DNA of 50,138 nt from a virus (IMGVR_UViG_3300029947_000009:1-50138); one strand, 5' to 3'; shown: positions 19,784 to 49,004, counted from the first letter of the stretch. Translations and numbers: made by a program. The notes: generated from the sequence alone by a model not told the origin.

Positions 19784-20182
19784 TCACCATTTCTCTTGAT
19801 CTCTCTTCGACTTCGCTTCGAACGTAATCAGCTGAGCCACGAATTCGATGGGGTCTCTTCCATGAGCAGCACAAAGCTCCAACACTTTCCGAGTAAATAC
19901 CCGATCTTCGCCAGAGAGAGTATAAACTACTTCCACAGTAGCTGGAGGATAATTGGACTCCTGTGCTAGAGAACTTATGAGAATGGAGCGATCGATTTTT
20001 CGGGCTATCTCTTCGAGCTCTCTCCAAACCATAATAGTGGTTTCCTGAATCCCATATACCTCTCTTAGCTCATCAGAACTCTCATCAGTCCATTTTTCCA
20101 GCGCGTAGCAGTTGTATCTACTATCACAGCTTATGTACCCATCTTTTCGAGAAATGCAGCTATCACAGGGGAAATCAATCAT
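19784..20182 (-). CDS. Hypothetical protein
   Basis: 132 aa with an 8-nt overlap with the upstream deaminase gene. Preferred over the overlapping 19713..20027 ORF. Confidence 0.55.
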   Translation of the reverse strand: MIDFPCDSCISRKDGYISCDSRYNCYALEKWTDESSDELREVYGIQETTIMVWRELEEIARKIDRSILISSLAQESNYPPATVEVVYTLSGEDRVFTRKVLELCAAHGRDPIEFVAQLITFEAKSKRDQEKW

Positions 20183-20783
20183 TTAATATCACCTCCCCAC
20201 CCCAGAGCAGATCTAACTGCGTAACCTTAATTCCCGCCTTTTTCAGCAGTTCCAGTCCCGCAGAGTCTCTATAGTCCTCTAGATACTTCAGCTCCTTAAT
20301 ACCAGAGTTCACAATCACCTTAGCACAATTGATACAGGGTGACATAGTACAATACAGGATACAGTCTTCCACTGATACTCCAGCCCTGGCAGCAAAGGCA
20401 ATGGCATTAGTCTCAGCATGAAGACTCCTGGTACACCCCGGACCCATACAGACTCTCTGGTAATACTCCAGTCCTTCTCCCGAAGAGAAATAAGGATTCT
20501 TTACGTCCAGGCAGTCTATCAGGGGGTTAGGCTGTACACAGGGAGGCATGCCGGAGATAGGTCCATTGTATCCCATAGACACGATACGACCATCCTTCAC
20601 AACCACAGCTCCAACCTGGGACCGGAGACAGGTAGACCGTTGGGATACCAGCAGACAGGCCACAGAGAATAAGGTATCTCGAGACATCCTCTTTCGGGTT
20701 ATCAGGTTTTCAGTGTAGTCTTGATTCCTTTCTTGACACCCTGAGTTTTCTTGATAACACTGATTCTTGTCCTTGTTTTCCAT
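20175..20783 (-). CDS. dCMP deaminase (ComEB/T4 cd-like zinc deaminase)
   Basis: HAETNAI and SPCINCAK zinc-binding motifs, plus VSQRSTC. Confidence 0.85.
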   Translation of the reverse strand: MENKDKNQCYQENSGCQERNQDYTENLITRKRMSRDTLFSVACLLVSQRSTCLRSQVGAVVVKDGRIVSMGYNGPISGMPPCVQPNPLIDCLDVKNPYFSSGEGLEYYQRVCMGPGCTRSLHAETNAIAFAARAGVSVEDCILYCTMSPCINCAKVIVNSGIKELKYLEDYRDSAGLELLKKAGIKVTQLDLLWGGEVILND

Positions 20784-25489: not shown

Positions 25490-26314
25490 ATGAAGAAAGA
25501 CAGAAATCGTATCCTGGGGTCTCTTCTGGGGTTTGCTATTGGAGATGCCATGGGAGCAACCACGGAGTTCATGACCCAGGAGAAAATCCATCAGGAGTAT
25601 GGGGAGGTCAACCAAATCATCGGGGGAGGCTGGCTTGACCTGATACCTGGAGAAGTTACCGACGACACTCAAATGATGATGATTGTGGCCAACGCCCGCA
25701 TGAAAGGTAAGTGTGAGTTCCTCCATAATTGCTGTACTGGTTTTGTGAAGTGGCTCAAAAGTAACCCTGTGGACGTAGGAGGAGCCTGTAGGCTCGCAAT
25801 AGTCCAGGGGGGTAGTAATCCTCCCCGTGAGTGGATGCGACTCTCTAAGAGACGTCAGGAGGTTCGTGGAGTGATGGACCTTGGGAACGGGGCTGTTATG
25901 AGGGCTCTATTCCTAGCTCTGAGTGGGGAGGTTGATCTGGCCATAAATCAGGGAAGGCTAACCCACAACAACTCGGAATCCGGTTATTACATTGATAAGT
26001 ACTGTCAGAGTGTATCTTCGGCTCTCTACTCTATTCCGATCTATGGGCCTTCTCTTATGGAGCCTACTGGACACGTGAAGAACTCCGTTAATAATGCCAT
26101 TTACTGGAGTTCTCACTCTACCAACTTTCGAGAGGCTGTTATTGGCCCTGTAAATCATGGGGGGGACGCTGATACTATAGCCGCTCTAACGGGGGGAATT
26201 GCTGGGGCCTGTTATGGGGCTGATAATATCCCCAGAGAATGGGTAGAGACTCTTGATTCTAACGTAGTGGGGGATTTAATGAACATGGCCAATTGGCTAA
26301 TGGATAATCCCTAA
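25490..26314 (+). CDS. ADP-ribosylglycohydrolase family protein (DraG/ARH-like)
   Basis: GFAIGDAMGATTEF, EVTDDTQMM and GGDADTIAALTGGIAGACYG...IPREW match the ARH family metal-site motifs. Confidence 0.85.
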   Translation: MKKDRNRILGSLLGFAIGDAMGATTEFMTQEKIHQEYGEVNQIIGGGWLDLIPGEVTDDTQMMMIVANARMKGKCEFLHNCCTGFVKWLKSNPVDVGGACRLAIVQGGSNPPREWMRLSKRRQEVRGVMDLGNGAVMRALFLALSGEVDLAINQGRLTHNNSESGYYIDKYCQSVSSALYSIPIYGPSLMEPTGHVKNSVNNAIYWSSHSTNFREAVIGPVNHGGDADTIAALTGGIAGACYGADNIPREWVETLDSNVVGDLMNMANWLMDNP

Positions 26315-27859: not shown

Positions 27860-28337
27860 ACTGAGGTGGCTTCGCTTCACGGGAACTTGTCTTAGGGAGT
27901 GTGCTCCCATGGACTTCTTTCTACAACCTGCCAGTATGTCGGGCAAGTGGCATCAGGGATACGAGTTAGGTGTGGGAGGACTGGTTCGTCATACTATAGC
28001 CGCTATGGATGTGGCTAGAACCCTATTTCCCACATATTCCTTTACTGAGGAGGAAGAGGATGCCATAGTCTCCGCTTTGGCCCTACATGATTTGGCTAAA
28101 CCCAGTAAGACCCATCCCCTTGAGGTAGAAGCTATTCTGGAGCCAATGAGAGACCAGTGGTATCTTGAAGTGGCAACTGTGGTATCTCTAATAGAGACTC
28201 ATCATGGTCAGTGGGACTACTATGGAAAGATGCCTCGTCCTAAAACTCCCAGCCAGCAGTTTGTTCATCTCTGTGACTACATATCCTCCCGCAAGAATAT
28301 TGCGGTGGATATATTTTATAAGGGGGAAACTAAATGA
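27789..28337 (+). CDS. HD-domain phosphohydrolase
   Basis: VRHTIAAMDVA ... ALALHDLAKP ... ETHHGQWDY (H...HD...H pattern), with an AAGGAGG RBS. Confidence 0.7.
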   Translation: MDTLDTKLIEQSLEVMSLESRFHRLRWLRFTGTCLRECAPMDFFLQPASMSGKWHQGYELGVGGLVRHTIAAMDVARTLFPTYSFTEEEEDAIVSALALHDLAKPSKTHPLEVEAILEPMRDQWYLEVATVVSLIETHHGQWDYYGKMPRPKTPSQQFVHLCDYISSRKNIAVDIFYKGETK

Positions 28338-28993
28338 AGGTTATTAAGTCCACAGTTGAGCCCCTGTTCTTTCCTGATCGGGAAACCCTGTATGGACTCA
28401 TCGAAACCGCAGGGAGAACCTGCTACCAGTCTGAAAAAGTAGAAGGGGATACCACTGAGAAATTCATCCAAAGACTTATGAAAAGAAAGCACTGGTCGGT
28501 ACTGGAGCATGCCAACCTTTCTATTCGCTTTACCTGTGATCGGGGTGTAACTCATGAGCTGGTTCGTCATCGAATTGCTTCCTACTCCCAGGAAAGCACT
28601 CGGTATTGTAATTATGCTGGGGATAAGTTTGGGGGGGGGGAGATCAAGTTCATTGATCTGGCCACCGGGTTCAATTATGACCTGAGTAACCCTGGGGACC
28701 TAGCCAAGTACGGGGTCTGGGCGAGAGCTATGGAGGATGCCGAGAAGTACTATATGGAGATGCTGAAGATTGGGGCTACCCCCCAGGAGGCTCGTTCGGT
28801 ACTTCCCAACAGTACCAAAACCGAGATTGTAGTAACTATGAATGTAAGGGAGTGGAGACACTTCTTGGAAATGAGGTGGGTCGGTGTAGCTGGCACTCCC
28901 CATCCCCAGATGGTAGAAGTGGCTGAAGAGGTTTATAACCTATTGAACTACTATTATCCCGCCCTCTTTGGGGATATCAAGAAGGCTAAATAA
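28334..28993 (+). CDS. thyX: Flavin-dependent thymidylate synthase ThyX
   Basis: Perfect ThyX motif RHRIASYSQESTR (RHRxxSxxxxSxR). Confidence 0.9.
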   Translation: MKVIKSTVEPLFFPDRETLYGLIETAGRTCYQSEKVEGDTTEKFIQRLMKRKHWSVLEHANLSIRFTCDRGVTHELVRHRIASYSQESTRYCNYAGDKFGGGEIKFIDLATGFNYDLSNPGDLAKYGVWARAMEDAEKYYMEMLKIGATPQEARSVLPNSTKTEIVVTMNVREWRHFLEMRWVGVAGTPHPQMVEVAEEVYNLLNYYYPALFGDIKKAK

Positions 28994-33714: not shown

Positions 33715-34446
33715 ATGAGAATCTACATCAACGCAGAAGAGATGATCGAGGAGACAAAGAGGGATCTCGCTGAGATGGGTATTGTGGTAAGACCTGCAAC
33801 CATGCAGGACAAATACGTCAAGGGAGATCCCGACTATGAAACCCGGGAGCTTCAGAACTATTCCTACTGCCTGTTGGATGCCAAGAGTCAGGATATTCCG
33901 GGGGTATCCCAGCCCTGGGCGGATGCTGAGTTTGGGGAGAGAGTTACGGACCCCTGGTATCGTACTCCTGATGGAAAAGTTGATCCTCTCCACACTCCAG
34001 AATACCTCAACCCCGGAAGTGCCTGGAGACTACGTAAGGAGGTATGGACTGAGTACCTGCACGAGGGTAAGATGGCCTATACCTACAACGAGCTTATCTG
34101 GAATAATGACCAGGCAGTTAAGGTCATCAATCGCCTGAAGGAGGACCCCGACTCCCGTCAGCTGTGGATTAGTCTTTGGAATCCTGATAAGGACCCGGAC
34201 TTTCTAGGGGGTATTTCCCGAGTTCCCTGTTCCCTGGGGTATGGCCTCCAGGTTCGTGATGGGAAGCTCAATCTGCACTATGTAATGAGGTCCTGTGACT
34301 TCGCTACCCATTTCCGAAACGATGTCTACCTGGCCATTCGGTTCTTGGAGTGGGTAGCTGAGAAAACCGGCTATCCTGTGGGAAGCTTTACCCACACTAT
34401 CTTCTCCCTGCATGTGTACAACAAGGACGTGGAAGGAGTATTCTAA
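33715..34446 (+). CDS. Thymidylate synthase-fold enzyme (dNMP C5-methylase/hydroxymethylase-like, paralogue B)
   Basis: SRQLWISLWNP, VPCSLGYGLQVRDGKLNLHYVMRSCDFATHFRNDVYLA and FTHTIFSLHVY align with ThyA SRR..vs.WNP, PPCH..fQFYV.dGkLs..lyQRSCDvFLG.PFNIASY and H..GD.HiY. Confidence 0.8.
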   Translation: MRIYINAEEMIEETKRDLAEMGIVVRPATMQDKYVKGDPDYETRELQNYSYCLLDAKSQDIPGVSQPWADAEFGERVTDPWYRTPDGKVDPLHTPEYLNPGSAWRLRKEVWTEYLHEGKMAYTYNELIWNNDQAVKVINRLKEDPDSRQLWISLWNPDKDPDFLGGISRVPCSLGYGLQVRDGKLNLHYVMRSCDFATHFRNDVYLAIRFLEWVAEKTGYPVGSFTHTIFSLHVYNKDVEGVF

Positions 34447-36890
34447 TGACCTGTAATAACTGCAACCTCTGTTCTTTCTCGGACCCATCCTGCATATGGG
34501 GATCTGGAAACCCCAAGGCCAAAGTTATGGTGGTTAATAGCTACGCCAGTGAACAGGATGAGGAAAGGGGGGCGGCAGTAATGCCGTCCTCCCTCGTAGA
34601 AAGACTTCAGGGAATAGGAATAGACCCCGAAAAGGTCTACTATACCAACGCTATTAAATGTGCCTGTCCCAGAGGTACCAAATTTAAGGCTGGGGACATT
34701 AAGAAATGTAAAGTTCATCTAGATCAAGAGATTGCCCAGGTAAAACCACAGTTCATTTTAGTTTTAGGAGCTCAGGCTCTAAAAGCCACAGTAGACGGCT
34801 CTATTACAGAATTAAACGGAGTAATGGTGGAGAGGGATGGGGTTAAGTATATGCCCTCCTATAGCCCGGGAATAGTGTACCGAGATCCAGGTAAGGCTCC
34901 CTTTGTGGATAAGGCTATGAACAATTTTAAGTCGATGGTGAAAGGGGACCTGGATGGACCTCCTGAGCTGGACGTTAGAGTCATAGCTAATATGAGACAA
35001 CTTAAAAGGGCCTTTCAGTATCTGACCGAAAATGGCTACCTTCACCTTAGCTATGATATAGAAACCACAGGTCTAGTAAGGTTCGAGGACGAGGTAAATC
35101 TATTTGGATTTGGAAATGACCAGGTTCAGTATATTATACCCCTGGAGGCTCCCCTGAGCCCGCTGAAGGGCCTAAGGATGGCACAACATAAACTTATAAC
35201 CACTGCCATAAAGTGGTTAAATAGGAACGCTAAGGACCTAGTAGCAGGCAATGGAAAGTTCGATGATCTATTCCTGGAGTATAAGTTTGGGGTGAAGCCC
35301 CATATAACCTTTGACGTAGTATTGGCCTCCCATATTCTAAATGAGAATACCCCAAACGGAGTCAAGGAGAATGCCGTTCAGGAGTGCAATGCCCCCAACT
35401 GGGATGTGGATAAAAACCTAAAGACTGGCCAGTACAGTTCCCCTGAAAAGTATCAGGAGTATTTAACCTACCTCGGATATGATATCTATTATGAATACAA
35501 GCTTTTTAGGGTATTCCGAAAGAAATTAAAACAGGATAAGGCCCTGATGAAACTCTTCTACCACTTATATATGCCGGGAATAATATCCTATGAGACTGTG
35601 GAACAACATGGGGTATTTATCTATCCCCAGCAGTTTAAGGAGGTAAGGAAGCATCTGGAATCTGAGAAATCCAAGATTGAGAAACAGCTCCTTAAACTGG
35701 CTGGGCATGAGGTAAACTGGAACTCCCCAGCTCAAATTCAAAAACTACTCTATGAAGAACTAAAATTGCCTATTCTGGAGAGAACTGAGTCAGGAGCCCC
35801 CTCCACAAGTGAGGCTACTATGATGCAGTTACGAGAGGAGCACCCCATAGTAGAACTAATCCTTAAATACCGGGGGGTAAATATTCAGATTTCCCATTTT
35901 ATAGATGGATGGATAAATCGAATGTGGGGAAGGAGATTGTTTCCCAATTTCAAACTTCACGGAACTGTAACGGGAAGAACCTCCTGTACTGACCCCAACC
36001 TTCAGCAGGTCCCTAGAGACCCCATCATTCGGAATTTGGTAGGAGCTCCAGAAGGTTGGTCTGTGGTTGAGATAGACTATTCTCAGGCTGAACTTCGTAT
36101 TGCTGCCATAATGTCCGGGGACGAGACCATGACCCGGATATATCAAACTGGGGGAGATATCCATACCCACACTTACGAGATGATAACGGGAGAAAAGGTC
36201 TCAGATGATAAGTATATCCGGAAAGAGCAAAGAAAGAAAGCCAAGGCCGTTAATTTTGGATTTGTTTATGGAATGGGCTGGAAGAAGTTCAAGATATATG
36301 CTAGAGATAACTATGGGGTTGATCTTACTGATAAGGAAGCCGAACAGTGGCGGGAGAAGTTTTTTGATACCTACCATTCCCTACCCAAATGGCACTCTAA
36401 GCAAAGGAGAATAGTCCAGTCTATGGGACAGGTAAGAAGTCCTATAGGGAGAATAAGAAGACTTCCTGATATTTATTCCACAGATAAATCTAAAAAGGCT
36501 GAAGCTGAGAGACAGAGTATAAACTCCCCCGTTCAAGGATTTGGTTCAGACCTTACTATTTTGGGGATGTCTGAAATTATGGGCAATGCCCAGTACTATG
36601 ACCCTGACTATGTATTGGATAAGGATAAGTTCTTTGTCATAGGAACCGTGCACGATGCTACTTTGTTCGAGGTAAGGAATGACTATTTAATGGAATTTTG
36701 CCCAAGGGCTAAGCATATTTTGGAACATCCAAAGGCACTTGAGGAAGTATTCCACTTCGAGACTGATGTACCCATTATAGCCGATGTGGCCGTTGGTAGA
36801 TCCTGGGGGGCTGGTAAGGAACTTCACATGGACCCTGGGGATGAAACCTGGAAACAAGAAATACAGGAGTATCTAGATAGTCTAAAATAA
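34446..36890 (+). CDS. Family A DNA polymerase with 3'-5' exonuclease and an N-terminal degenerate UDG (family 4)-like domain
   Basis: Exo motifs: LSYDIETTGL, NGKFDDLFL, YLGYDIYYEY. Pol motifs: VVEIDYSQAELRIAA (A), RKKAKAVNFGFVYGMG (B), IGTVHDA (C). The N-terminus CNNCNLC...GSGNPKAKVMVVNSYASEQDEERG...YYTNAIKCACP has a UDG4 layout, but GEAPG is replaced by NSYAS. Confidence 0.9.
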   Translation: MTCNNCNLCSFSDPSCIWGSGNPKAKVMVVNSYASEQDEERGAAVMPSSLVERLQGIGIDPEKVYYTNAIKCACPRGTKFKAGDIKKCKVHLDQEIAQVKPQFILVLGAQALKATVDGSITELNGVMVERDGVKYMPSYSPGIVYRDPGKAPFVDKAMNNFKSMVKGDLDGPPELDVRVIANMRQLKRAFQYLTENGYLHLSYDIETTGLVRFEDEVNLFGFGNDQVQYIIPLEAPLSPLKGLRMAQHKLITTAIKWLNRNAKDLVAGNGKFDDLFLEYKFGVKPHITFDVVLASHILNENTPNGVKENAVQECNAPNWDVDKNLKTGQYSSPEKYQEYLTYLGYDIYYEYKLFRVFRKKLKQDKALMKLFYHLYMPGIISYETVEQHGVFIYPQQFKEVRKHLESEKSKIEKQLLKLAGHEVNWNSPAQIQKLLYEELKLPILERTESGAPSTSEATMMQLREEHPIVELILKYRGVNIQISHFIDGWINRMWGRRLFPNFKLHGTVTGRTSCTDPNLQQVPRDPIIRNLVGAPEGWSVVEIDYSQAELRIAAIMSGDETMTRIYQTGGDIHTHTYEMITGEKVSDDKYIRKEQRKKAKAVNFGFVYGMGWKKFKIYARDNYGVDLTDKEAEQWREKFFDTYHSLPKWHSKQRRIVQSMGQVRSPIGRIRRLPDIYSTDKSKKAEAERQSINSPVQGFGSDLTILGMSEIMGNAQYYDPDYVLDKDKFFVIGTVHDATLFEVRNDYLMEFCPRAKHILEHPKALEEVFHFETDVPIIADVAVGRSWGAGKELHMDPGDETWKQEIQEYLDSLK

Positions 36891-42518: not shown

Positions 42519-42986
42519 ATGGAATATGTAAAACACAAATACTCAAAGAGAGTGTATAGGGTAATGACCGACCATGGACCTGAGCACCCTTATTTATCTA
42601 GTTTCCCCTACGTTAGAAATATATCCACAGGAATGTTGGAAAGATTTTTTTTTTCCTGTGGGAAGCCCCAGGTAGAGTATGAATCCCCTGTGCCAGTGGG
42701 TAAGGAGATAGAGTGGGAGAAGCGTCAACTAAGACGTGAGGAGCCAATAGTGGTGAAATCCCCCCAGGTAATATCCAAATCTAGAGCCAGGAATAAAAGA
42801 CCCCCCCAGGTCAAGCAGGGGCCTAGGGAATATACCTTAAAAGACCTTTGTTCTGAATTGGGGATTTCTCCCACTGTAGCCAGAAAGGTTCTTAGGTCTA
42901 AGGGGATGACAGCTCCCGAAGGAGGATGGAGATGGCCTAGTCCTGAAGCTGCCAAAGACATAAAAGAAATTTTGAAAAATTTTTAA
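42519..42986 (+). CDS. Hypothetical protein; its C-terminal domain is paralogous to that of 43079..43567
   Basis: YTLKDLCSELGISPTVARKVLRSKGMTAPEGGWRW compared with ITLKELAAEFHMKGTKARRLLRNASISRPYGGNRWEW. Confidence 0.6.
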   Translation: MEYVKHKYSKRVYRVMTDHGPEHPYLSSFPYVRNISTGMLERFFFSCGKPQVEYESPVPVGKEIEWEKRQLRREEPIVVKSPQVISKSRARNKRPPQVKQGPREYTLKDLCSELGISPTVARKVLRSKGMTAPEGGWRWPSPEAAKDIKEILKNF

Positions 42987-43078: not shown

Positions 43079-43567
43079 ATGACTAACCTGACCAACATCA
43101 ATCTGGAGACCCTGACTGCTACTGAACTCAAGACTCTGGCTAAGGAGTTCAAGGTAAAGAACTGGTGGAATCTGAAGAAGACTGACCTTATCACTGAGCT
43201 GACCAATATTAGACTGGACCTGGAAGACAAAGCTGCTGTCCAAAGGGCCAACGAGAAATATAAGGAGGAGCTCGAGAAGATGGCCAATAAGGTTTATCAG
43301 GAAGAAAAAATCCCCCAGAAGCCCAAGACCTCTTCTACTTCCAAAAAGACTTCTAAGGCTCCTAAGGTGGAGAAGGATGAGGAAAACCTGATAACCCTGA
43401 AAGAACTAGCTGCTGAGTTCCACATGAAGGGAACTAAGGCTCGGAGACTTCTTAGGAATGCTTCCATCTCCCGTCCCTATGGGGGCAATCGCTGGGAGTG
43501 GGATAAAAACCTTCACGTCGACGAACTGAATATGGCCAGGGAATATCTGAAGGCTCACATCAAGTAA
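43079..43567 (+). CDS. Hypothetical protein with an N-terminal HeH/Rho-N-like motif and a conserved C-terminal domain
   Basis: LTATELKTLAKEFKVKNWWNLKKTDLITEL at the N-terminus. Confidence 0.6.
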   Translation: MTNLTNINLETLTATELKTLAKEFKVKNWWNLKKTDLITELTNIRLDLEDKAAVQRANEKYKEELEKMANKVYQEEKIPQKPKTSSTSKKTSKAPKVEKDEENLITLKELAAEFHMKGTKARRLLRNASISRPYGGNRWEWDKNLHVDELNMAREYLKAHIK

Positions 43568-43580
43568 AAACAAGAAAAAG

Positions 43581-43608
43581 CCCCTCTAGTCTATTCAGAC
43601 TAGAGGGG
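43581..43608. terminator. Convergent-junction terminator (12-bp stem)
   Basis: cccctctagtct-attc-agactagagggg. The U-tract is present only for the minus-strand transcript (ctttttcttgttttt). Confidence 0.8.
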
Positions 43609-43621
43609 AATCCTTGAACTC

Positions 43622-44233
43622 TTAGCAGATATCCACTCCAATGGATTTGGTCTTCTCCCGATAGTATTCATGGAGTTCTTCCTGCATGTCCATAACTCCC
43701 ACAGCATCGAAAGATATAGCCTTAAGCTTTAAGAATAGACGGTCTAAATATTTGAGTTCCCGGTCGACATCCTTGACGTATTCGTTGATCTTAAGGGCAT
43801 CAGCCACACAGTCCAGATTCATAAGGGCCTTAGAGTATCCCGAGTAGGTCTCCTTGGTTTCGGACTCCCACTCCCTGTACTCATTGAAAGCCTTCTCTAT
43901 AGCCTGTTTCCGAACCTGGGGGGTTACATCAAAGCGAGTATACTGAACCCACTCAGTTGGTATGACCTCAGGCTCCTGGGGGTGTTCCCCAACCAGAAGT
44001 CTATTGTGGTGATTTATATAATATCTACACAGTCCCCGGTGCTCAGCAGACTCAGCCAGATACTGGTACTCATGCATTCTCTTGAATCCCATCAGACCCA
44101 GGAAGTCAAACAGGTCGGCCATCTGAGAGTGAAACATGAGAGCTGTAATTTGTCTGTCATGGATAGCCTTGAATATGTCTTCACTGGTCATTTCTTCAAG
44201 GGCCAGTGAGCTATACCTGTTCTTCCCCATCAT
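43622..44233 (-). CDS. All-alpha protein, possibly ferritin-like fold (weak call)
   Basis: 203 aa. ALMFHSQMADLFDFLGLMGFKRMHEYQYLAESAEHRGL loosely recalls ferritin-like helices. Confidence 0.3.
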   Translation of the reverse strand: MMGKNRYSSLALEEMTSEDIFKAIHDRQITALMFHSQMADLFDFLGLMGFKRMHEYQYLAESAEHRGLCRYYINHHNRLLVGEHPQEPEVIPTEWVQYTRFDVTPQVRKQAIEKAFNEYREWESETKETYSGYSKALMNLDCVADALKINEYVKDVDRELKYLDRLFLKLKAISFDAVGVMDMQEELHEYYREKTKSIGVDIC

Positions 44234-44405
44234 GTAAAAGTCTCCTTTCCAGAATTTCTAGTTTGTTGAGTATGCTATCCAACTTCTTCTGCATCTGGTC
44301 CTGTTCCTGATGTTGGGAGGTGTTCTTATCATAGTTTAAGAGTCCCAAGAAGGTATTAAACAGGGCTATGACATCAAAGGGGTCATACTCATTGGGATTG
44401 ATCAT
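44211..44405 (-). CDS. Small hypothetical protein
   Basis: 64 aa with an ATGA overlap with the upstream gene. Confidence 0.5.
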   Translation of the reverse strand: MINPNEYDPFDVIALFNTFLGLLNYDKNTSQHQEQDQMQKKLDSILNKLEILERRLLHDGEEQV

Positions 44406-44824
44406 GCCAGCTTGACCATACCTACACAGGTATGATTGACCGTACCAGCTACACCACTGATGTCAAGAGTAATCAGGGGACGGTTGACACAACAGGTAGT
44501 TAGGCACAGGTCAGTCTCAATGTGATCGGTATATACACTTCCAGCTACCACGGTATGCTGAGAGATAGCACAGGGAAGAGCGACCCCATCCTTGTAGAGC
44601 TGAATGATAGCTACTCCTGCAGCTGTGGGAGTATAGGTGACATCAGCGGAGAGGTGGTATAGACCAGACTTATTTACCCGAATACTGGCCGTATTCAGGG
44701 TCATGGAGCAGCCACTCTGAACTACGGGGGTGCCTTCCAGGTTCAGAGGGGTTAGGGCTGCTGTAAAAGCCTGAGCGGCATTGTTATAAACCCGAATGCA
44801 GGATTTAGCGTACTGATTGTTCAT
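44402..44824 (-). CDS. C1q/TNF-like jelly-roll protein resembling the BclA exosporium C-terminal domain (tentative)
   Basis: 140 aa. IRVNKSGLYHLSADVTYTPTAAGVAIIQLYKDGVALP ... VGMVKLA follows the beta-strand pattern of BclA-CTD (ETGFYKITVIANTA..LTIQVNGVPVPG...IIIEKVA). AAGGAG RBS. Confidence 0.4.
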   Translation of the reverse strand: MNNQYAKSCIRVYNNAAQAFTAALTPLNLEGTPVVQSGCSMTLNTASIRVNKSGLYHLSADVTYTPTAAGVAIIQLYKDGVALPCAISQHTVVAGSVYTDHIETDLCLTTCCVNRPLITLDISGVAGTVNHTCVGMVKLA

Positions 44825-44909
44825 ATCAAAATCTCCTTTTCATAGTGTAAGAGGGGGACTTACGCCCCCCTTCAGAGTGAGGCATAATTATATGCCAAAG
44901 TTTCAGGAA

Positions 44910-45620
44910 TTAGCAGCCGCAGCCGTTGCCACAGCCATAGGAGCCATAGCCATTAGCCGCCGTATAGGGACTGCAGGTAATATAGCTCGGAGTGGGGAAG
45001 GGTCTTACTGCGTTGATGATGGTCTGAGTCTGAGACAGGTTACCAAGCTGAAGCTGGGCAGCCTGCAGGTTGTCACGCAGCTCCTGGATGGTGTTCTGAG
45101 TCATCAGGGCCCGGGTAGCAGCACCATCTTCCCGGATGGCATTTACGATATCGCAGGTGTTGCGGGCATTTTCATACCGGACCGAGTCGATGTTGCGGTT
45201 GGTCTCACAGCAGCACTGCTGAGAGTCAAACCGAGCCTGGTTGATGTTCTGGTTGATTCCGTTGAAGCCCTGGCACAGGTCCCTCTGGACTCCGTTGAAC
45301 CCATTCAGCATGCCAGTGTTCATGGCGTAGAAGCCATCACACAGGCCGTTCTCCAGGCCATTGAGTTTGCCCATGACGTTCTGGTTGTCGAATCCCCTCT
45401 GGACCTCAGCGCTAGTAGCAAGCTGTTCACCGAAGTTCCGGTTTCCGAAGCCACCCCATCCGCCGTTTCCCCAGGCCAGAAGGAAGAACAGGAAGAACAC
45501 CCACATTCCGTTCCCCCCGAACAGACCATCGTTATCATAACCACGATTGCGGTCAGATACCAGGATAGCCTCGGAGGGGGTCATGCCACAGCCAGTGGCG
45601 CCAGTCATTTCCATACCCAT
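44910..45620 (-). CDS. Single-pass membrane protein rich in Gly/Asn/Cys, with internal repeats and a C-terminal GCGNGCGC tail
   Basis: 236 aa with a GGAGGT RBS. The TM segment MWVFFLFFLLAW is flanked by G-rich runs. ~20-aa repeats include NGLENGLCDGF, NGVQRDLCQGF, NQARFDSQQCCCET and VRYENARNTCDI. Confidence 0.6.
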   Translation of the reverse strand: MGMEMTGATGCGMTPSEAILVSDRNRGYDNDGLFGGNGMWVFFLFFLLAWGNGGWGGFGNRNFGEQLATSAEVQRGFDNQNVMGKLNGLENGLCDGFYAMNTGMLNGFNGVQRDLCQGFNGINQNINQARFDSQQCCCETNRNIDSVRYENARNTCDIVNAIREDGAATRALMTQNTIQELRDNLQAAQLQLGNLSQTQTIINAVRPFPTPSYITCSPYTAANGYGSYGCGNGCGC

Positions 45621-45645
45621 TTTGTTTTACCTCCATAATTTGAAT

Positions 45646-45861
45646 TTATTTCATCCCAGAGAACTGAGATTGAAACTGGTTCCAAGCGGCATCGAGGTCT
45701 ATTCCCCCTTGCCTACACAGATTGATGCAGGTCTGCTTGATTTGCTCCTCACTTTTCCCCTGGGCCATCTGTTGAGCCTGACGAAATAGGGGATGGTTCT
45801 GAAACTGAGACCTCATCATATTTTGCATCATATGTCCCATCTGAGCTCCAAAGTTCATCAT
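45646..45861 (-). CDS. Small Met/Gln-rich hypothetical protein
   Basis: 71 aa with an ATGA overlap with the upstream gene. Confidence 0.5.
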   Translation of the reverse strand: MMNFGAQMGHMMQNMMRSQFQNHPLFRQAQQMAQGKSEEQIKQTCINLCRQGGIDLDAAWNQFQSQFSGMK

Positions 45862-46328
45862 ACCTTTCCTCCTGTGGGATTAGTTAGTTGATCGAGTTGC
45901 TGAGAAAGATAGGACTTAATACCCTCTAGACCCCTAGAGAGTTCCTCCCGGGTTGCATATTTGCTGAGATCAATATCCTGAGATTTCTTATCTACCCGGG
46001 GAGACTCCACAGGGGTAGGAGAATCCAGGGAATATTTGCAGAATACAATGTTTCCATCTAGGCCTAACTGCTTAGTATAAATCTTGTTGTGGGCCTTATC
46101 AGGAAAGACAAACAGGGAGCCATCGAAGTCGATCATGGCTGCATTGGCCTCTTCTTCGTTTGATACAGGTCTTCCCTTAACCACAGGAAGCTGAGTCCCC
46201 ATATAAGAATTGGGGGAGGGTGTCTGAGGATATCCCTGAGAGTATTGGGGATATTGATTCTCAAGCTGGGTTAGTCTCTGCTGAGCAAAGACATTCGGGG
46301 GATTGTATCCATATGGAGTATAGTTCAT
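45858..46328 (-). CDS. Hypothetical protein with a Q/P/Y-rich N-terminus
   Basis: 156 aa with an AAGGAGG RBS; first gene after its own promoter. Confidence 0.6.
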   Translation of the reverse strand: MNYTPYGYNPPNVFAQQRLTQLENQYPQYSQGYPQTPSPNSYMGTQLPVVKGRPVSNEEEANAAMIDFDGSLFVFPDKAHNKIYTKQLGLDGNIVFCKYSLDSPTPVESPRVDKKSQDIDLSKYATREELSRGLEGIKSYLSQQLDQLTNPTGGKV

Positions 46329-46356
46329 CAGTTCCAGACCTCCTTTTTTTTATTAT

Positions 46357-46365
46357 ATTATAACA
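46357..46365 (-). promoter_or_regulatory. Extended -10 promoter (TGtTATAAT) for the accessory cassette
   Basis: Minus strand reads gactgTGtTATAATataataaaaaaaaGGAGGtctggaactgATG. Confidence 0.4.
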
Positions 46366-46432
46366 CAGTCTGAAGCTTTTATGGTCTAGATAAATGACCA
46401 GAAAGGTTCTGGTAAAGTTCAAAAATTGCGCA

Positions 46433-46462
46433 AAAAAAAAGGTAGTCCCGAAGGACTACCTC
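46433..46462 (-). terminator. Rho-independent terminator after the sigma-like gene
   Basis: aggtagtcc-ttcg-ggactacct followed by T9 on the minus strand. Confidence 0.8.
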
Positions 46463-46473
46463 TTGATATATAC

Positions 46474-46704
46474 TTAGATTATCTTGTTTAGCTTCTTCAG
46501 TATCTTTCTATGTTTCTTCTTTATGGAACTTTCACTATACCCCAGAAGATCTCCTATGTAGGAGAAATTCTTTCCTCTAAGATAGTGTAGTTTCATAATT
46601 TCTCTTTCTTCATCGGACAAAATGCATTTATCTAGAAGCTCAGAGAAGGTTTGGATTTCTACTATTTCCTTAACCTTATTTCGGGTCTCAATGTGTTCAG
46701 TCAT
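46474..46704 (-). CDS. Sigma-70 region-4-like HTH protein (candidate late transcription regulator)
   Basis: LSDEEREIMKLHYLRGKNFSYIGDLLGYSESSIKKKHRKILKKL. The start is set at the ATG at 46704 (MTEHIE...) because the upstream small ORF ends at 46715. Confidence 0.65.
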   Translation of the reverse strand: MTEHIETRNKVKEIVEIQTFSELLDKCILSDEEREIMKLHYLRGKNFSYIGDLLGYSESSIKKKHRKILKKLNKII

Positions 46705-46714
46705 AGGAAGTTCC

Positions 46715-46855
46715 TCAGGGTTTATTGGTATACTTCCCACAGGTTGGGCAGCGATAGGGATTTCCACCCTTAGAGGAAGTATTTCCAGAGCTTGTAGTGG
46801 ATTTCCTAACCCGGGTAGTTTTCACTACCGTGGTAGTTTGCTTGGCCTTCCCCAT
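46715..46855 (-). CDS. Small basic protein (46 aa, MGKAKQTTTVVKTTRVRKSTTSSGNTSSKGGNPYRCPTCGKYTNKP)
   Basis: Strong AAGGGGGTGA RBS 7 nt upstream of the ATG at 46855; below the ORF-track cutoff. Confidence 0.45.
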   Translation of the reverse strand: MGKAKQTTTVVKTTRVRKSTTSSGNTSSKGGNPYRCPTCGKYTNKP

Positions 46856-46858
46856 CTA

Positions 46859-47167
46859 TTATTCACCCCCTTCGTTATGGATAGCTTGATCATTGTATTG
46901 ATTTCCTTGAACGTTGTTTATACTAGAACCTTCTCCTTCCACTTCTTGAGTAGTAGTGGTTGTAGTAGTAACATACTCCCACTGAGACTCATACCACAAG
47001 AAGGAGAATGCCAGGGCCAGGTTTATCAGGATACTGATGATGAGAGCTATCCATAGTTTCTTGAAATACCCATTCCTCTCTTTCAAGAGTTCCAGGGATA
47101 TTTTAGCCAGGGCCAGATTTTCATCTTCCTCTGTGGTTAAGACCTCTCCTGGAATATGATCATTCAT
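46859..47167 (-). CDS. Membrane protein of the lysis cassette
   Basis: 102 aa with the TM helix LWIALIISILINLALAFSFLW. Confidence 0.55.
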   Translation of the reverse strand: MNDHIPGEVLTTEEDENLALAKISLELLKERNGYFKKLWIALIISILINLALAFSFLWYESQWEYVTTTTTTTQEVEGEGSSINNVQGNQYNDQAIHNEGGE

Positions 47168-47579
47168 TAGAATTCTCCCCCGATTCTCCCTTAAGCTGAT
47201 TGATAAAAGATTCTCCCGCAGAGGTAATCAGTCCAGATATATCTACTCCACTGGAGATGAGAAGATTAGTAGCCGTTCCAGAAAGGTTCTTTAGGGTCTT
47301 TTCAATTAGGAGCTTTTTCAGGTACTCAATCTCTTCAGGGGTAAGTTTTCCATCAGAAGCTGCAGCTTTCAAATTTTCCACCAGGGTCTGCTGGAGTTCA
47401 CCCACCGTTAGCTGAGTGGCCCGAATGGCCTCTTCTGTGGCTTTCTTAATGTTTTCCAGCTTGTGAGAATTTCCCATCTTCACAAGCAGCCAGGTGCCTG
47501 CCATACCTAATAGGGTTAGAACCACAGTTCCCAGAATCTGGGAGACGGTTTCAATAAGAGCGTTTACAAGAGCATCCAT
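47160..47579 (-). CDS. Holin (LL-H-type: N-terminal TM plus a long charged helical tail)
   Basis: ILGTVVLTLLGMAGTWLLV transmembrane segment, lying near the endolysin gene. Confidence 0.6.
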   Translation of the reverse strand: MDALVNALIETVSQILGTVVLTLLGMAGTWLLVKMGNSHKLENIKKATEEAIRATQLTVGELQQTLVENLKAAASDGKLTPEEIEYLKKLLIEKTLKNLSGTATNLLISSGVDISGLITSAGESFINQLKGESGENSNE

Positions 47580-47970: not shown

Positions 47971-48558
47971 TTAATCCACATCCATATGGACGTAAGTATT
48001 ATCGATGGCATAAGCATAGTGTACCACTGATTGCTTACGCACTAGAGCCAGGGTCTGGGTACTAGTCCAGCCCCCCAGGCGGAAGTCCATGGCCCTACCA
48101 CTTAGATGTCTAGAGTTTTTTGCCGAGCCCGAGAGTTCATCATTATGGGCCTGACACCGAACAGTACTGGAGGGATACATAGGAACTCCAGCTTGTTCTC
48201 TAACCCCATCCGCCAGTTTCATAAGTCTTTCGGTCGGCTCTACTGGGAAACCACCACAACGGGGGCAGGGGCAGCGAATTCCAGGGTCAGTACGCTTAAA
48301 GTACTTGATCTCACTCCACCAAGAGGGGGATTGGTCATTGGGGGATACATTTTTGGAGGGTGTATATATCCTTCCAGCTGATACAGCTGATAGGAGGGCC
48401 TTTTGGGTCTCAGAACCCGCTACACCATCTGGGGAGAGTTTTTCCTGCTGCTGGAATGTTAATATGGCCGAAGTGGTTTTAGGCCCGCTAAGGCCATCCA
48501 CGGGGCCGGGGGAGTATCCCAGATAGGTCAATAGGGCTTGAATCTGTTTGATATTCAT
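47971..48558 (-). CDS. Endolysin: PG_binding_1 domain plus peptidase M15A (zinc D-Ala-D-Ala carboxypeptidase-like)
   Basis: Start at the ATG at 48558 (GAAGGTGA RBS). Contains LGYSPGPVDGLSGPKTTSAILTFQQQEKLSPDGVAG, SRHLSGRAMDF and YVHMDV. Confidence 0.8.
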   Translation of the reverse strand: MNIKQIQALLTYLGYSPGPVDGLSGPKTTSAILTFQQQEKLSPDGVAGSETQKALLSAVSAGRIYTPSKNVSPNDQSPSWWSEIKYFKRTDPGIRCPCPRCGGFPVEPTERLMKLADGVREQAGVPMYPSSTVRCQAHNDELSGSAKNSRHLSGRAMDFRLGGWTSTQTLALVRKQSVVHYAYAIDNTYVHMDVD

Positions 48559-49004
48559 TCTATCACCTTCTCCCAGGCCATGGATAACTCTCCAGGCTCC
48601 CAAATATTGTCATCAACAAGGGATCTATAGACAATCCCACCTTTGGAACAACAGTCCCCCTTATTGTAGGGACTGGTGGCTAGTTTTACAAAGGGAAGGG
48701 CTTTCGCCGGGTTGGTACTCCACGCAAAGCCCCACTGGGCAGATAATTCCTCAGGTTCCTGGGTGTAGATGGTGCTGTCATAGGGCTGCACCAGCCGCAC
48801 CACACGTCCGGCGGGAGACCGGCACACGAACCCCGCCGCACGTTCCAGCATGTTCTTGTTGGCCACTGCGGCCGTGAAGGACGGGATATCCCCATCCGCC
48901 GCATTCAGCTCCGTGCCGTTCATGGCAGGGGCTTCTTCCTGAAGCTTCAGGGCGTTCGCCCTGCCCTGGGCATACATGATGCTTTTTCTTTCCTCTTGGG
49001 TCAC
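48555..49004 (-). CDS. Hypothetical fibre-associated protein with a possible CBM5/12-like C-terminus
   Basis: 149 aa with a GTG start (GTGA overlap). The GC composition changes inside the gene. Confidence 0.45.
   Translation of the reverse strand: MTQEERKSIMYAQGRANALKLQEEAPAMNGTELNAADGDIPSFTAAVANKNMLERAAGFVCRSPAGRVVRLVQPYDSTIYTQEPEELSAQWGFAWSTNPAKALPFVKLATSPYNKGDCCSKGGIVYRSLVDDNIWEPGELSMAWEKVIE

Follow-up and report, generated by a model that had tools for sequence, protein, structure and literature searches.

A minus-strand cassette lying behind the lysis genes of the virus contig IMGVR_UViG_3300029947_000009 (50,138 nucleotides, the whole of which is referred to here as the window) was found to be one copy of a gene module that recurs, with collinear genes, at approximately 160 loci. 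The cassette comprises six open reading frames (ORFs), named g1 to g6, at window positions 43622-46328. A previous reading of the window from its sequence alone (the sequence-only reading) had described these six minus-strand ORFs, all of which were found where it had placed them, and had proposed that they form an undescribed host-modifying or surface module. That the module is real, conserved, moron-like and undescribed was borne out, while the link drawn to spores proved weak and a role as a virion fibre is possible. The six genes stood, but they are not the complete unit, given that a gene for a Sigma70_r4 protein travels with them and that g4, g5 and g6 are exchangeable. The core order, as predicted from the sequences, is regulator, terminator, operator, promoter, g1, g2, g3, hairpin, Cys-rich beta protein, helpers and terminator. 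The explanation favoured here, tentatively and at somewhat below an even chance, is that the module specifies a separately regulated, non-enzymatic, disulfide-linked shaft-plus-knob fibre or appendage. New with respect to the sequence-only reading are the inclusion of a regulator in the unit, the repeats before the promoter, the conserved hairpin after g3, and the g3 shaft with its fusion in tail position.

The linkage of these genes was surveyed by scanning IMG/VR with g3 and then applying iterative hidden Markov model (HMM) searches to the ORFs of 82 viral or phage loci. The module genes always stood in the same order and on the same strand, g1 being found at 79 of these loci, g2 at 63, g3 at 81, g4 at 49, g5 at 14, g6 at 19 and a homologue of the regulator at 66. 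The same picture was seen at 80 further loci from species-representative genomes (g1 at 72 of them), and likewise in the contexts of distant family representatives. The order at the approximately 160 collinear loci is a sigma-region-4 regulator, g1, g2, g3, g4 or an alternative Cys-rich protein, and variable end genes. The sequence-only reading had suggested such a survey and had named a lack of conserved linkage as the outcome that would tell against it; conserved linkage was what the survey returned. Every one of g1 to g6 proved to be a conserved protein family at other loci. The g3 family was confirmed in at least 598 IMG/VR contigs; clustering its members gave at least 7,659 groups at an identity of 90%, and 2,025 at 50% (1,012 of these with E<=1e-10). 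No Pfam domain was present among the g3 family members listed, and the names given to them were 'hypothetical protein'. A nucleotide search of phage genomes gave only 3-5% coverage.

Scans of g1 to g6 against Pfam, NCBIfam and PHROGs returned only sub-threshold matches or families of unknown function (g3 being PHROG 16490), and a PADLOC scan of the same proteins gave no match to a model of known anti-phage defence, with only a weak, non-specific helix-turn-helix (HTH) match for the regulator. This agreed with the earlier proposal of an undescribed module. No enzyme domain or defence family was matched in any component, including the genes that alternate at exchangeable positions, and neither a lipobox nor a signal peptide was seen when the six protein sequences were read. 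Literature searches on virion proteomics of the Clostridium perfringens carriers and on phage sporulation genes turned up nothing on the module proteins. The proteins g1, g2 and g3 belong to no described family, and the module therefore appears to lie outside the known kinds of system, a placement made by absent homology and literature and not by demonstrated function.

The signature protein of the module is g3 (236 amino acids, aa; 44910..45620, minus strand). It starts with an acidic N-terminal tail and a conserved hydrophobic helix, WVFFLFFLLAW, set between Gly-rich runs, and continues through 11-residue repeats, an invariant QQCCCETNRNID...NTC motif, a heptad coiled coil and a P.PAYITCSPY motif to a Cys-rich C-terminal tail. 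Its composition (14% G, 12% N, 11 Cys) and single hydrophobic helix fit the Gly/Asn/Cys-rich membrane protein previously described. Indels of 11, 7, 11 and 7 residues were observed in the family alignment, units of a size typical of a fibrous coiled-coil shaft, and on this sequence pattern g3 is proposed to be a hydrophobically anchored coiled-coil shaft. The AlphaFold2 (AF2) model consisted of long helices at low confidence (predicted local distance difference test, pLDDT, 40.7) and was too poor for a structure search. No matches were found for g3 in the PDB by sequence or profile, and member-by-member Pfam scans gave only scattered weak matches, such as Flg_hook. A 273-aa plus-strand ORF at 44817-45638 was rejected as a gene because the minus-strand frame, that of g3, is the conserved one; it was considered the antisense shadow of g3.

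The position after g3 was always occupied by a Cys-rich beta protein, either g4 (72 loci) or c2 (57 loci), the latter a Cys-rich family of ~128 aa that is unrelated to g4. In the window it is held by g4 (140 aa; 44402..44824, minus strand), a Cys-rich beta-sandwich resembling the BclA C-terminal domain (CTD) and C1q/TNF-like domains. Although g4 alone reached only 19.7 bits (E=7.9e-4) against Pfam BclA_C, below the cut-off of 38, a relative at locus L165 has a firm precomputed match to this family (E<=1e-5), and the g4 family profile matched PDB entry 9H38 (F-BclA-CTD) at E=1.4e-5, BclA at ~2e-3 and C1q-type domains weakly. The alignment spans the whole jelly-roll, with profile positions 8-139 of 144 placed on residues 14-143 of the 148-residue 9H38 chain, and the earlier description of a C1q/BclA-CTD-like protein was therefore right at the level of fold. 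Entry 9H38 represents the CTD of F-BclA, a protein that makes up the tip fibrillum on the F-ENA appendages of spores (PMC12357932). The g4 domain starts ~10 residues from the N-terminus, and its conserved cysteines include N-terminal ones. No collagen GXX repeats, exosporium leader or signal peptide were found in the 140-aa sequence, and no such repeats in the family alignment; g4 thus lacks the N-terminal collagen repeats and leader of a BclA-type exosporium glycoprotein. Neither DUF3992 nor DUF4183, domains of ENA and F-ENA subunits (DUF4183 being that of F-ENA; PMC12357932), was matched in Pfam by g1 to g6 or by the alternatives to g4.

Given the similarity of g4 to the tip domains of exosporium and spore appendages (F-BclA and BclA), one alternative is a spore-surface module, with proteins that sporulating cells would produce and incorporate into their coat or exosporium, so that phage-carrying spores are tagged or modified. 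The absence of signal peptides from the module proteins would be in keeping with this, as mother-cell coat proteins also lack them, and so would the Cys-, Q- and Y-rich compositions, the presence of a Spo0A_C protein in the same phage, the weak GerE-type match of the regulator and a ferritin-like protein that can be likened to coat catalases. Clostridia account for many of the carrier bins, and C. perfringens is the host of the cultured carriers. However, the module was also found in the chromosome of a Dialister isolate, on a Phascolarctobacterium contig, and in bins labelled Treponema, Gastranaerophilales and Bacteroidales. As Dialister and Phascolarctobacterium are diderms (Negativicutes) that are not known to sporulate, a spore-specific function would not be the general role of the module, and the exosporium and sporulation link of the sequence-only reading was weakened by these prophages and by the bins of other phyla. 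Furthermore, the cassette promoter is of the housekeeping extended -10 type and not of the sigmaE or sigmaK type, g4 has neither the collagen repeats nor the exosporium leader, no coat or exosporium family was matched in Pfam or NCBIfam, and both g4 and g6 are replaceable parts. A spore-surface module is accordingly considered improbable.

Evidence of a different kind came from a fusion protein, P0440 (557 aa; locus L163, 263-1936), in which the g3 shaft, CCC motif and PxPAY end are joined to an N-terminal region of ~410 aa that replaces the hydrophobic helix. This protein stands out among the 150 best representatives of the g3 family. Its gene directly follows the C-terminus of a gene for a PblB-like 'tail protein' and is itself followed by c2 and DUF7841 genes, with no g1 or g2 upstream. 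The arrangement suggests that shaft, tip and a helper part can work as a virion fibre, and that g1, g2 and the hydrophobic helix provide an alternative anchoring of the shaft. A BppU-like domain in the N-terminal region was considered and dropped, with no support in Pfam, the PDB or IMG/VR. The claim that none of the products resembles virion functions was thereby challenged, the shaft being found in the position of a tail fibre; the fusion was nevertheless given modest weight, as it comes from one short contig.

The gene that had been missed from the unit lies at 46474..46767 (minus strand) and encodes a small stand-alone sigma-70 region-4 or HTH protein (Pfam Sigma70_r4, 2.6e-9, 36.9 bits, cut-off 24.1), with weaker GerE and HTH_38 matches beside it and a match to PHROG 36, 'transcriptional regulator' (E 9.5e-14). 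Only region 4 was matched; region 2, required of a sigma factor for core binding and -10 recognition, is absent, and the product is therefore regarded as a stand-alone HTH regulator and not as a sigma factor. Homologues forming one family by clustering were found directly upstream of g1 at 86 loci. It is because of the Sigma70_r4 match, this recurrent position, and the terminator and repeats in the intervening spacer that the regulator is assigned to the unit as its seventh conserved partner, and it is proposed from the sequences to be the dedicated regulator of the cassette. The homologues are ~79 aa long, compared with ~76-97 aa (maximum 97) for the window protein, the true start of which is likely Met22 at ~46704, giving ~76 aa. 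Met22 is supported because a 46-aa ORF at 46715-46855 (minus strand) overlaps the annotated GTG start. This small ORF has a C-terminal CPTCG motif resembling a zinc ribbon, and its relatives occur at the same place in four loci.

Between the regulator gene and g1, an intrinsic terminator with a 12-bp stem, a 4-nt loop and a T9 tail (46437..46464, minus strand) marks the end of the late/lysis operon just ahead of the cassette promoter. A terminator had previously been placed at 46433-46462; its presence was confirmed, with coordinates that were 2-4 nt off (46464-46437 on the minus strand). Terminator-like hairpins were also present in 51 of 75 homologous regulator-to-g1 spacers. The promoter (46352..46365, minus strand) was read directly from the sequence as an extended -10 element, TGTTATAAT, at 46365-46357 with a second, overlapping TATAAT, in agreement with the extended -10 promoter reported before. 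No recognisable -35 was seen for it, and it is because of this poor -35 that the promoter was absent from the list of the consensus scan. A strong ribosome-binding site, AGGAGG, was read at 46344-46339 (minus strand), ahead of g1. A candidate operator, the inverted repeat ACCAGAA-CCT-TTCTGGT, likewise read from the sequence (46397..46413, minus strand), is centred ~55 nt upstream of the expected start site. At the same position many related loci have a pair of direct repeats, often ~11 or ~22 nt apart and sometimes at other spacings, with sequences that vary by locus (for example two copies each of CTTTTCGTATA, TATACTTTTAGTAT and AGGGAAT, or three of AAGTCATAGAA). The mean best-repeat score of regulator-to-g1 spacers was 6.35 vs 2.80 in shuffles. 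In the promoter region of the window itself a direct repeat did not pass this test, and only the inverted repeat is reported there. Locus-specific repeats next to a conserved regulator are what would be expected of a dedicated regulator co-evolving with its operator.

A second regulatory feature, absent from the sequence-only reading, lies within the operon. The spacer between g3 and g4 contains a palindrome, GGCATA-TAAT-TATGCC (GGCATATAATTATGCC; 44881..44896, minus strand), which occurs once in the window against 0.06 expected by chance and is identical in 7 related loci. It precedes a GC-rich hairpin (44852..44871, minus strand; spacer fold z-score -2.5). Of 99 distinct spacers that separate g3 from its downstream neighbour, 84 had a GC-rich hairpin with a T-containing tail, whereas 17.7 were expected to; the hairpins vary in sequence, with compensatory changes among close relatives. 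The hairpin after g3 is therefore conserved across the family, and it probably serves as an internal attenuator, in the manner of a leaky terminator, or as a stabiliser of the mRNA. A search of the cassette region against Rfam returned no RNA family.

The boundaries of the unit were as the sequence-only reading had described them, in that the cassette has its own promoter and is flanked by terminators on both sides. The second of these (43581..43608) was found on the minus strand, with a 12-bp stem containing 7 GC pairs and the tail CTTTTTCTTG; it closes the cassette and faces the end of the convergent plus-strand replication genes. Within the cassette, g1/g2 and g4/g5 overlap by 4 nt (stop/start codons) and g5/g6 by 23 nt, which suggests, at the level of sequence, translational coupling.

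Upstream of g3, in g1 (156 aa; 45858..46328, minus strand), a conserved helix at the N-terminus leads into a disordered linker rich in Q, P and Y; then come a small alpha+beta domain with the family motif KGRPVS..EEA..A.ID.DGS...F.D....IYTKQ..LDG, and a C-terminal coiled-coil helix. Its AF2 model had a mean pLDDT of 63, rising to 88-95 over residues 121-150, the C-terminal helix included. Searched against the PDB this model found no analogue (best E 0.44), and against BFVD its matches were uncharacterised phage proteins only; sequence and profile searches of the PDB gave coiled-coil noise, and no Pfam family was found for g1. The second protein, g2 (71 aa; 45646..45861, minus strand), has NPM/NPL repeats ahead of a C-terminal half that is conserved and helical, its start overlapping the g1 stop by 4 nt. 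Member-by-member Pfam scans gave only weak matches to SurA_N (4 members, best E 0.002) and Trigger_C. Both proteins had the compositions reported earlier, g1 being rich in P, Q and Y, and g2 in Gln (20%) and Met (13%). A possible role for g1 is that of adaptor or scaffold, and for g2 that of chaperone for the g3 hydrophobic helix.

The fibre explanation is favoured because g3 has 11- and 7-residue indels, a CCC...C motif, a Cys-rich tail and predicted helices; because a Cys-rich beta protein always follows g3 and g4 matches the tip domain of a spore fibril; and because P0440 carries the g3 shaft in the position of a tail fibre. The collinearity at approximately 160 loci, the regulator with its terminator and repeats, the hairpin after g3 and the lack of any matched enzyme domain or defence family also speak for it. 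In the mechanism proposed, the HTH protein, encoded by the last gene of the late/lysis operon, would bind the repeats between the terminator and the -35-less promoter and so control the cassette. The proteins g1, g2 and g3 would be made in excess, and the hairpin after g3 would pass part of the transcription into g4, g5 and g6. Oligomerisation of g3 would give a long alpha-helical coiled-coil shaft, anchored by its N-terminal hydrophobic helix either to the cell membrane or within a hydrophobic socket; the Met/Gln-rich g2 would shield or insert this helix, and g1, with its helix, disordered linker, small domain and coil, would act as adaptor or scaffold. At the other end, the Pro/Cys-rich C-terminus of g3 would be capped by the g4 knob and locked by disulfides, with g5 and g6 as assembly or accessory factors. 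Observed are the order of the genes, their regulatory anatomy, the g4 fold, the periodicity of the g3 coiled coil, the lack of enzyme domains, the family size and the place of the module behind the lysis genes. The contacts between partners, the direction of regulation, the location of the structure (envelope of the infected cell or virion) and its binding target are parts of this scheme that we infer. Stated more broadly, the module could be an undescribed, widespread phage-borne organelle in which a regulator, g1 to g3 and exchangeable Cys-rich tip and helper proteins build a fibre or coat, anchored in the membrane and locked by disulfides, on gut anaerobes under infection or on released virions or debris, for attachment, aggregation or exclusion. 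This broader statement is possible, though doubtful.

Several points weigh against a fibre. The AF2 model of g3 is unreliable at its pLDDT of 40.7, and P0440 is known from a single assembled contig of 2.9 kb, with no match of its N-terminal region in Pfam or the PDB and no close match in IMG/VR. As g4 has no signal peptide, it would cap an extracellular shaft only after lysis, or else the shaft would be cytoplasmic. A strongly hydrophobic anchor would be unusual for a virion fibre, and a shaft and knob in 1:1 ratio would need no attenuating hairpin. The replacement of g4 and g6 by unrelated families means that the 'knob' may be non-essential to the core.

At the exchangeable end of the module, the small g5 protein (64 aa; 44211..44405, minus strand) has an N-terminal hydrophobic helix and a coiled-coil tail, with weak Pfam matches to DUF4083 and NSP4 only, and its family occurs at 17 loci. 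The last gene of the module encodes g6 at 26 loci, a DUF7841 protein at 54, and an RG/Y-rich disordered protein at 12. The families that replace g4, g5 or g6 elsewhere are c2, DUF7841 and c9; the possibilities that c2 is a diverged g4, or DUF7841 or c9 a diverged g6, were rejected on hhalign probabilities of <=1.1%. The DUF7841 proteins (for example L089 9199-9663, L026 6964-7425 and L103 9208-9777) share conserved HCVAYGPHF and NVDG..GEHW motifs, and a literature search on DUF7841 found nothing on the domain. In the window the last protein is g6 (203 aa; 43622..44233, minus strand), which is all-alpha and has no Pfam match; many members of its family end in Cys. A search of the protein database gave 273 relatives, of which 120 were listed, none of these with a Pfam family. 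The g6 family profile matched archaeal and bacterial ferritins at E=8e-4 to 0.08, over helices A and B only, with a second stretch contributing ~2 bits. The ferroxidase ligands (Glu in helix A, Glu-x-x-His in helix B) are not conserved: the helix-A Glu corresponds to Gln28 (Q or other residues in the alignment) and the helix-B His to the variable position 64, Glu61 being nearly invariant. The all-alpha character and weak ferritin match of the protein that had been called possibly ferritin-like therefore stood, but not the ferroxidase residues, and from its sequence g6 would be ferritin-like in fold at best and not a ferritin.

These features bear on a further alternative, in which the Cys-rich proteins, together with the ferritin-like protein or the His/Cys-rich DUF7841 protein, form a metal- or redox-handling set that binds iron or another metal in strict anaerobes. 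The median number of Cys per protein (9 in g3, 4 in g4 and 5 in g6), the relation of g6 to ferritin, the anaerobic gut samples from which all module sources came, and the lack of signal peptides in the partners, which may thus be cytoplasmic, where Cys is reduced, are all compatible with this. However, the ferroxidase ligands of g6 are not conserved and g6 is present in a minority of loci, no known metal-binding family or iron-sulfur motif was matched, and a structural role is indicated both by the periodicity of the coiled coil and by the fusion in tail-fibre position. Metal or redox handling is thus a very remote prospect.

The cultured carriers of the module are six C. perfringens phages, in which every module gene is annotated as hypothetical. 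Cultivable carriers are the C. perfringens phages CPD1, 17DYC and HMD-PC1 and prophages of Vescimonas fastidiosa MM35, Flintibacter muris DSM 110149 and the Dialister isolate. In the Phascolarctobacterium contig L089, the Clostridia contig L103 and V. fastidiosa MM35 the module lies at the prophage end after holin and lysin, adjoining host genes. In F. muris (L159) it follows the endolysin, with a recombinase beyond, and in the Dialister chromosome it follows tail genes. Many other matches are phage-sized contigs binned into metagenome-assembled genomes of several phyla, the bin labels of which are unreliable. The carriers include the monoderm Lachnospiraceae and Oscillospiraceae, and carrier contigs were labelled siphovirus, myovirus and podovirus alike. 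In the window phage neither an integrase nor a repressor was found among the ORFs scanned, and the phage encodes a family-A DNA polymerase, a primase-helicase, ThyX and a deaminase of its own.

The sequence-only reading had called the layout moron-like, and this was upheld for position, the module being the terminal block after holin and lysin, next to host genes, in integrated prophages. A promoter and terminator of its own between functional blocks, as in a moron, were present; the deviant base composition of a moron was not, the GC content of the cassette (0.45-0.52) falling within the range elsewhere in the window (0.38-0.57). Such a layout would also fit a lysogenic-conversion or superinfection-exclusion complex, a moron expressed in the lysogen and in late infection, in which g3 and its partners at the cytoplasmic membrane block the DNA entry or adsorption of other phages or alter the host surface. 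The unit's own promoter and terminators, the conserved g3 hydrophobic helix and the prophage-end position in L089, L103 and Vescimonas, and in part in Flintibacter L159, argue for this, since conversion genes of Firmicute prophages classically lie at this lysin-proximal end. To our knowledge, however, exclusion proteins are single small membrane proteins or lipoproteins, and not sets of 5-7 genes with beta-sandwich and coiled-coil parts. The lack of lysogeny genes among the scanned ORFs of the window phage, which has replication genes of its own, argues against a role that is purely prophage-expressed. The composition of the cassette is not foreign, no PADLOC match was obtained, and an activator encoded in the late operon, should the regulator be one, would leave the cassette unexpressed in lysogens. 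An exclusion complex is therefore held to be unlikely.

The location after the lysis genes, also noted before, was confirmed by a holin-like gene (47160-47579) and an endolysin gene with PG_binding_1 and Peptidase_M15_3 domains (47971-48603), both upstream of the cassette. As the module immediately follows endolysin and holin genes in many loci, it could also be a spanin- or fusogen-like late lysis accessory, with g3 and its partners remodelling or fusing membranes as the final step of release. With its N-terminal membrane helix, two coiled coils, conserved Cys and Pro-rich C-terminus, g3 resembles an i-spanin, and several carriers are diderm. The Dialister prophage has tail genes on one side of the module and, on the other, an 88-aa membrane/coiled-coil ORF that is XhlA-like by eye, with no separate endolysin gene seen in the map. 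The module is, however, equally conserved in monoderm hosts (C. perfringens, Lachnospiraceae, Oscillospiraceae), which have no outer membrane. No lipoprotein partner or lipobox was found, a separate terminator, promoter and regulator would be unexpected for a lysis gene, and the beta-sandwich and ferritin-like partners would be left unexplained. The chance that the module is a lysis accessory is judged to be slim.

Other genes near the module and in the window were recorded. A family named c5 (22 loci), encoded in the lysis region upstream of the module (for example L019 4490-4921, L026 4384-4845, L095 3489-3980), combines a signal peptide with a long coiled coil and a membrane helix at the C-terminus; its only Pfam match is a CENP-H-type coiled coil. 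Facing the cassette in the window, the plus-strand ORFs 42519-42986 and 43079-43567 have similar C-terminal segments (KDLCSELGISPTVARKVLRSKGMTAPEGGWRWP vs KELAAEFHMKGTKARRLLRNASISRPYGGNRWEW), and one of the products has a Rho_N/SAP-like N-terminus; the two may be paralogous DNA-binding proteins. The family-A DNA polymerase (34446-36890, plus strand) has an N-terminal domain of the uracil-DNA-glycosylase superfamily. Further nucleotide-metabolism and related genes lie at 28334-28993, 33715-34446, 20175-20783 (minus strand) and 25490-26314; besides the polymerase, the set comprises genes for ThyX, a second thymidylate synthase-related protein, a dCMP deaminase and an ADP-ribosylglycohydrolase, and it suggests a modified nucleotide metabolism. 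The gene at 18681-19100 (minus strand) encodes a protein of 139 aa in which the DNA-binding domain of the Spo0A C-terminus is clearly recognised (Pfam Spo0A_C, 1.2e-22); it adjoins three tRNA genes (Leu-tag, Gly-tcc and Met-cat; 18191-18532). A phage copy of the Spo0A effector domain could serve in the manipulation of host sporulation.

The g3 family ranks among the larger wholly unannotated phage protein families, and the module, a set of genes that stays together and brings its regulator along, is spread over many lineages of phages that infect gut anaerobes, whether integrated as prophages or lacking recognisable lysogeny genes. Nothing in current phage biology corresponds to a conserved multi-protein structure, non-enzymatic in nature, that is made as the late programme closes; if the broader organelle reading is true, it would be a phage-encoded surface structure of a new class, none of whose members has been characterised. 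Solving its function would give a role to thousands of 'hypothetical' gut-virome genes, the candidates being adhesion, aggregation, exclusion, spore association and release. With cultivable carriers in existence, this function is directly testable.

Of the known systems, the BclA and F-BclA fibrils (PDB 9H38, 1WCK; Sleutel et al. 2025, PMC12357932) resemble the module in the fold of the g4 knob, in the combination of an elongated stalk with a C1q/TNF-like knob, and in having many cysteines and no signal peptide. Unlike these fibrils, the module has no collagen GXX repeats or exosporium leader, the F-ENA subunit family DUF4183 is absent, the stalk would be formed by a separate polypeptide, g3, as a hydrophobically anchored alpha-helical coiled coil, and the whole is phage-encoded, also in phages of non-sporulating hosts. 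With the morons and conversion cassettes of Firmicute prophages the module shares an independent transcription unit and a terminal block adjoining host DNA; it differs in its five to seven collinear genes across thousands of phages, its dedicated regulator, its non-deviant composition and its presence in a phage without recognisable lysogeny genes. Two-component spanins (lambda Rz/Rz1) are similar in their position after holin and endolysin, and g3 shares with them an N-terminal membrane helix, two coiled-coil segments and conserved cysteines. The module, in contrast, has no outer-membrane lipoprotein with a lipobox and no restriction to diderms, being conserved in monoderms, and it is separately regulated and has extra partners.

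In the pap pilus operon, a hairpin after the major-subunit gene is reported to attenuate the downstream minor components. The chaperone-usher operons pap and fim offer a regulatory analogy only, in that a hairpin follows the structural gene, as it does g3 in the 84 of 99 spacers above; the module has no usher, periplasmic chaperone or signal peptides and no sequence relationship to them. Finally, phage tail-fibre and chaperone cassettes differ from the module in that the canonical g3 starts with a membrane-like hydrophobic helix and not with a virion-binding domain, and in that the module lies behind the lysis genes with its own terminator, promoter and regulator, on siphovirus, myovirus and podovirus contigs. 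Like these cassettes, the module has a fibrous shaft that is longer or shorter by whole repeat units, a beta-sandwich protein placed distally and small downstream helpers, with P0440 in a tail-fibre position, and spikes built as a fibre with a knob are known from PRD1 P5 and the adenovirus fibre.

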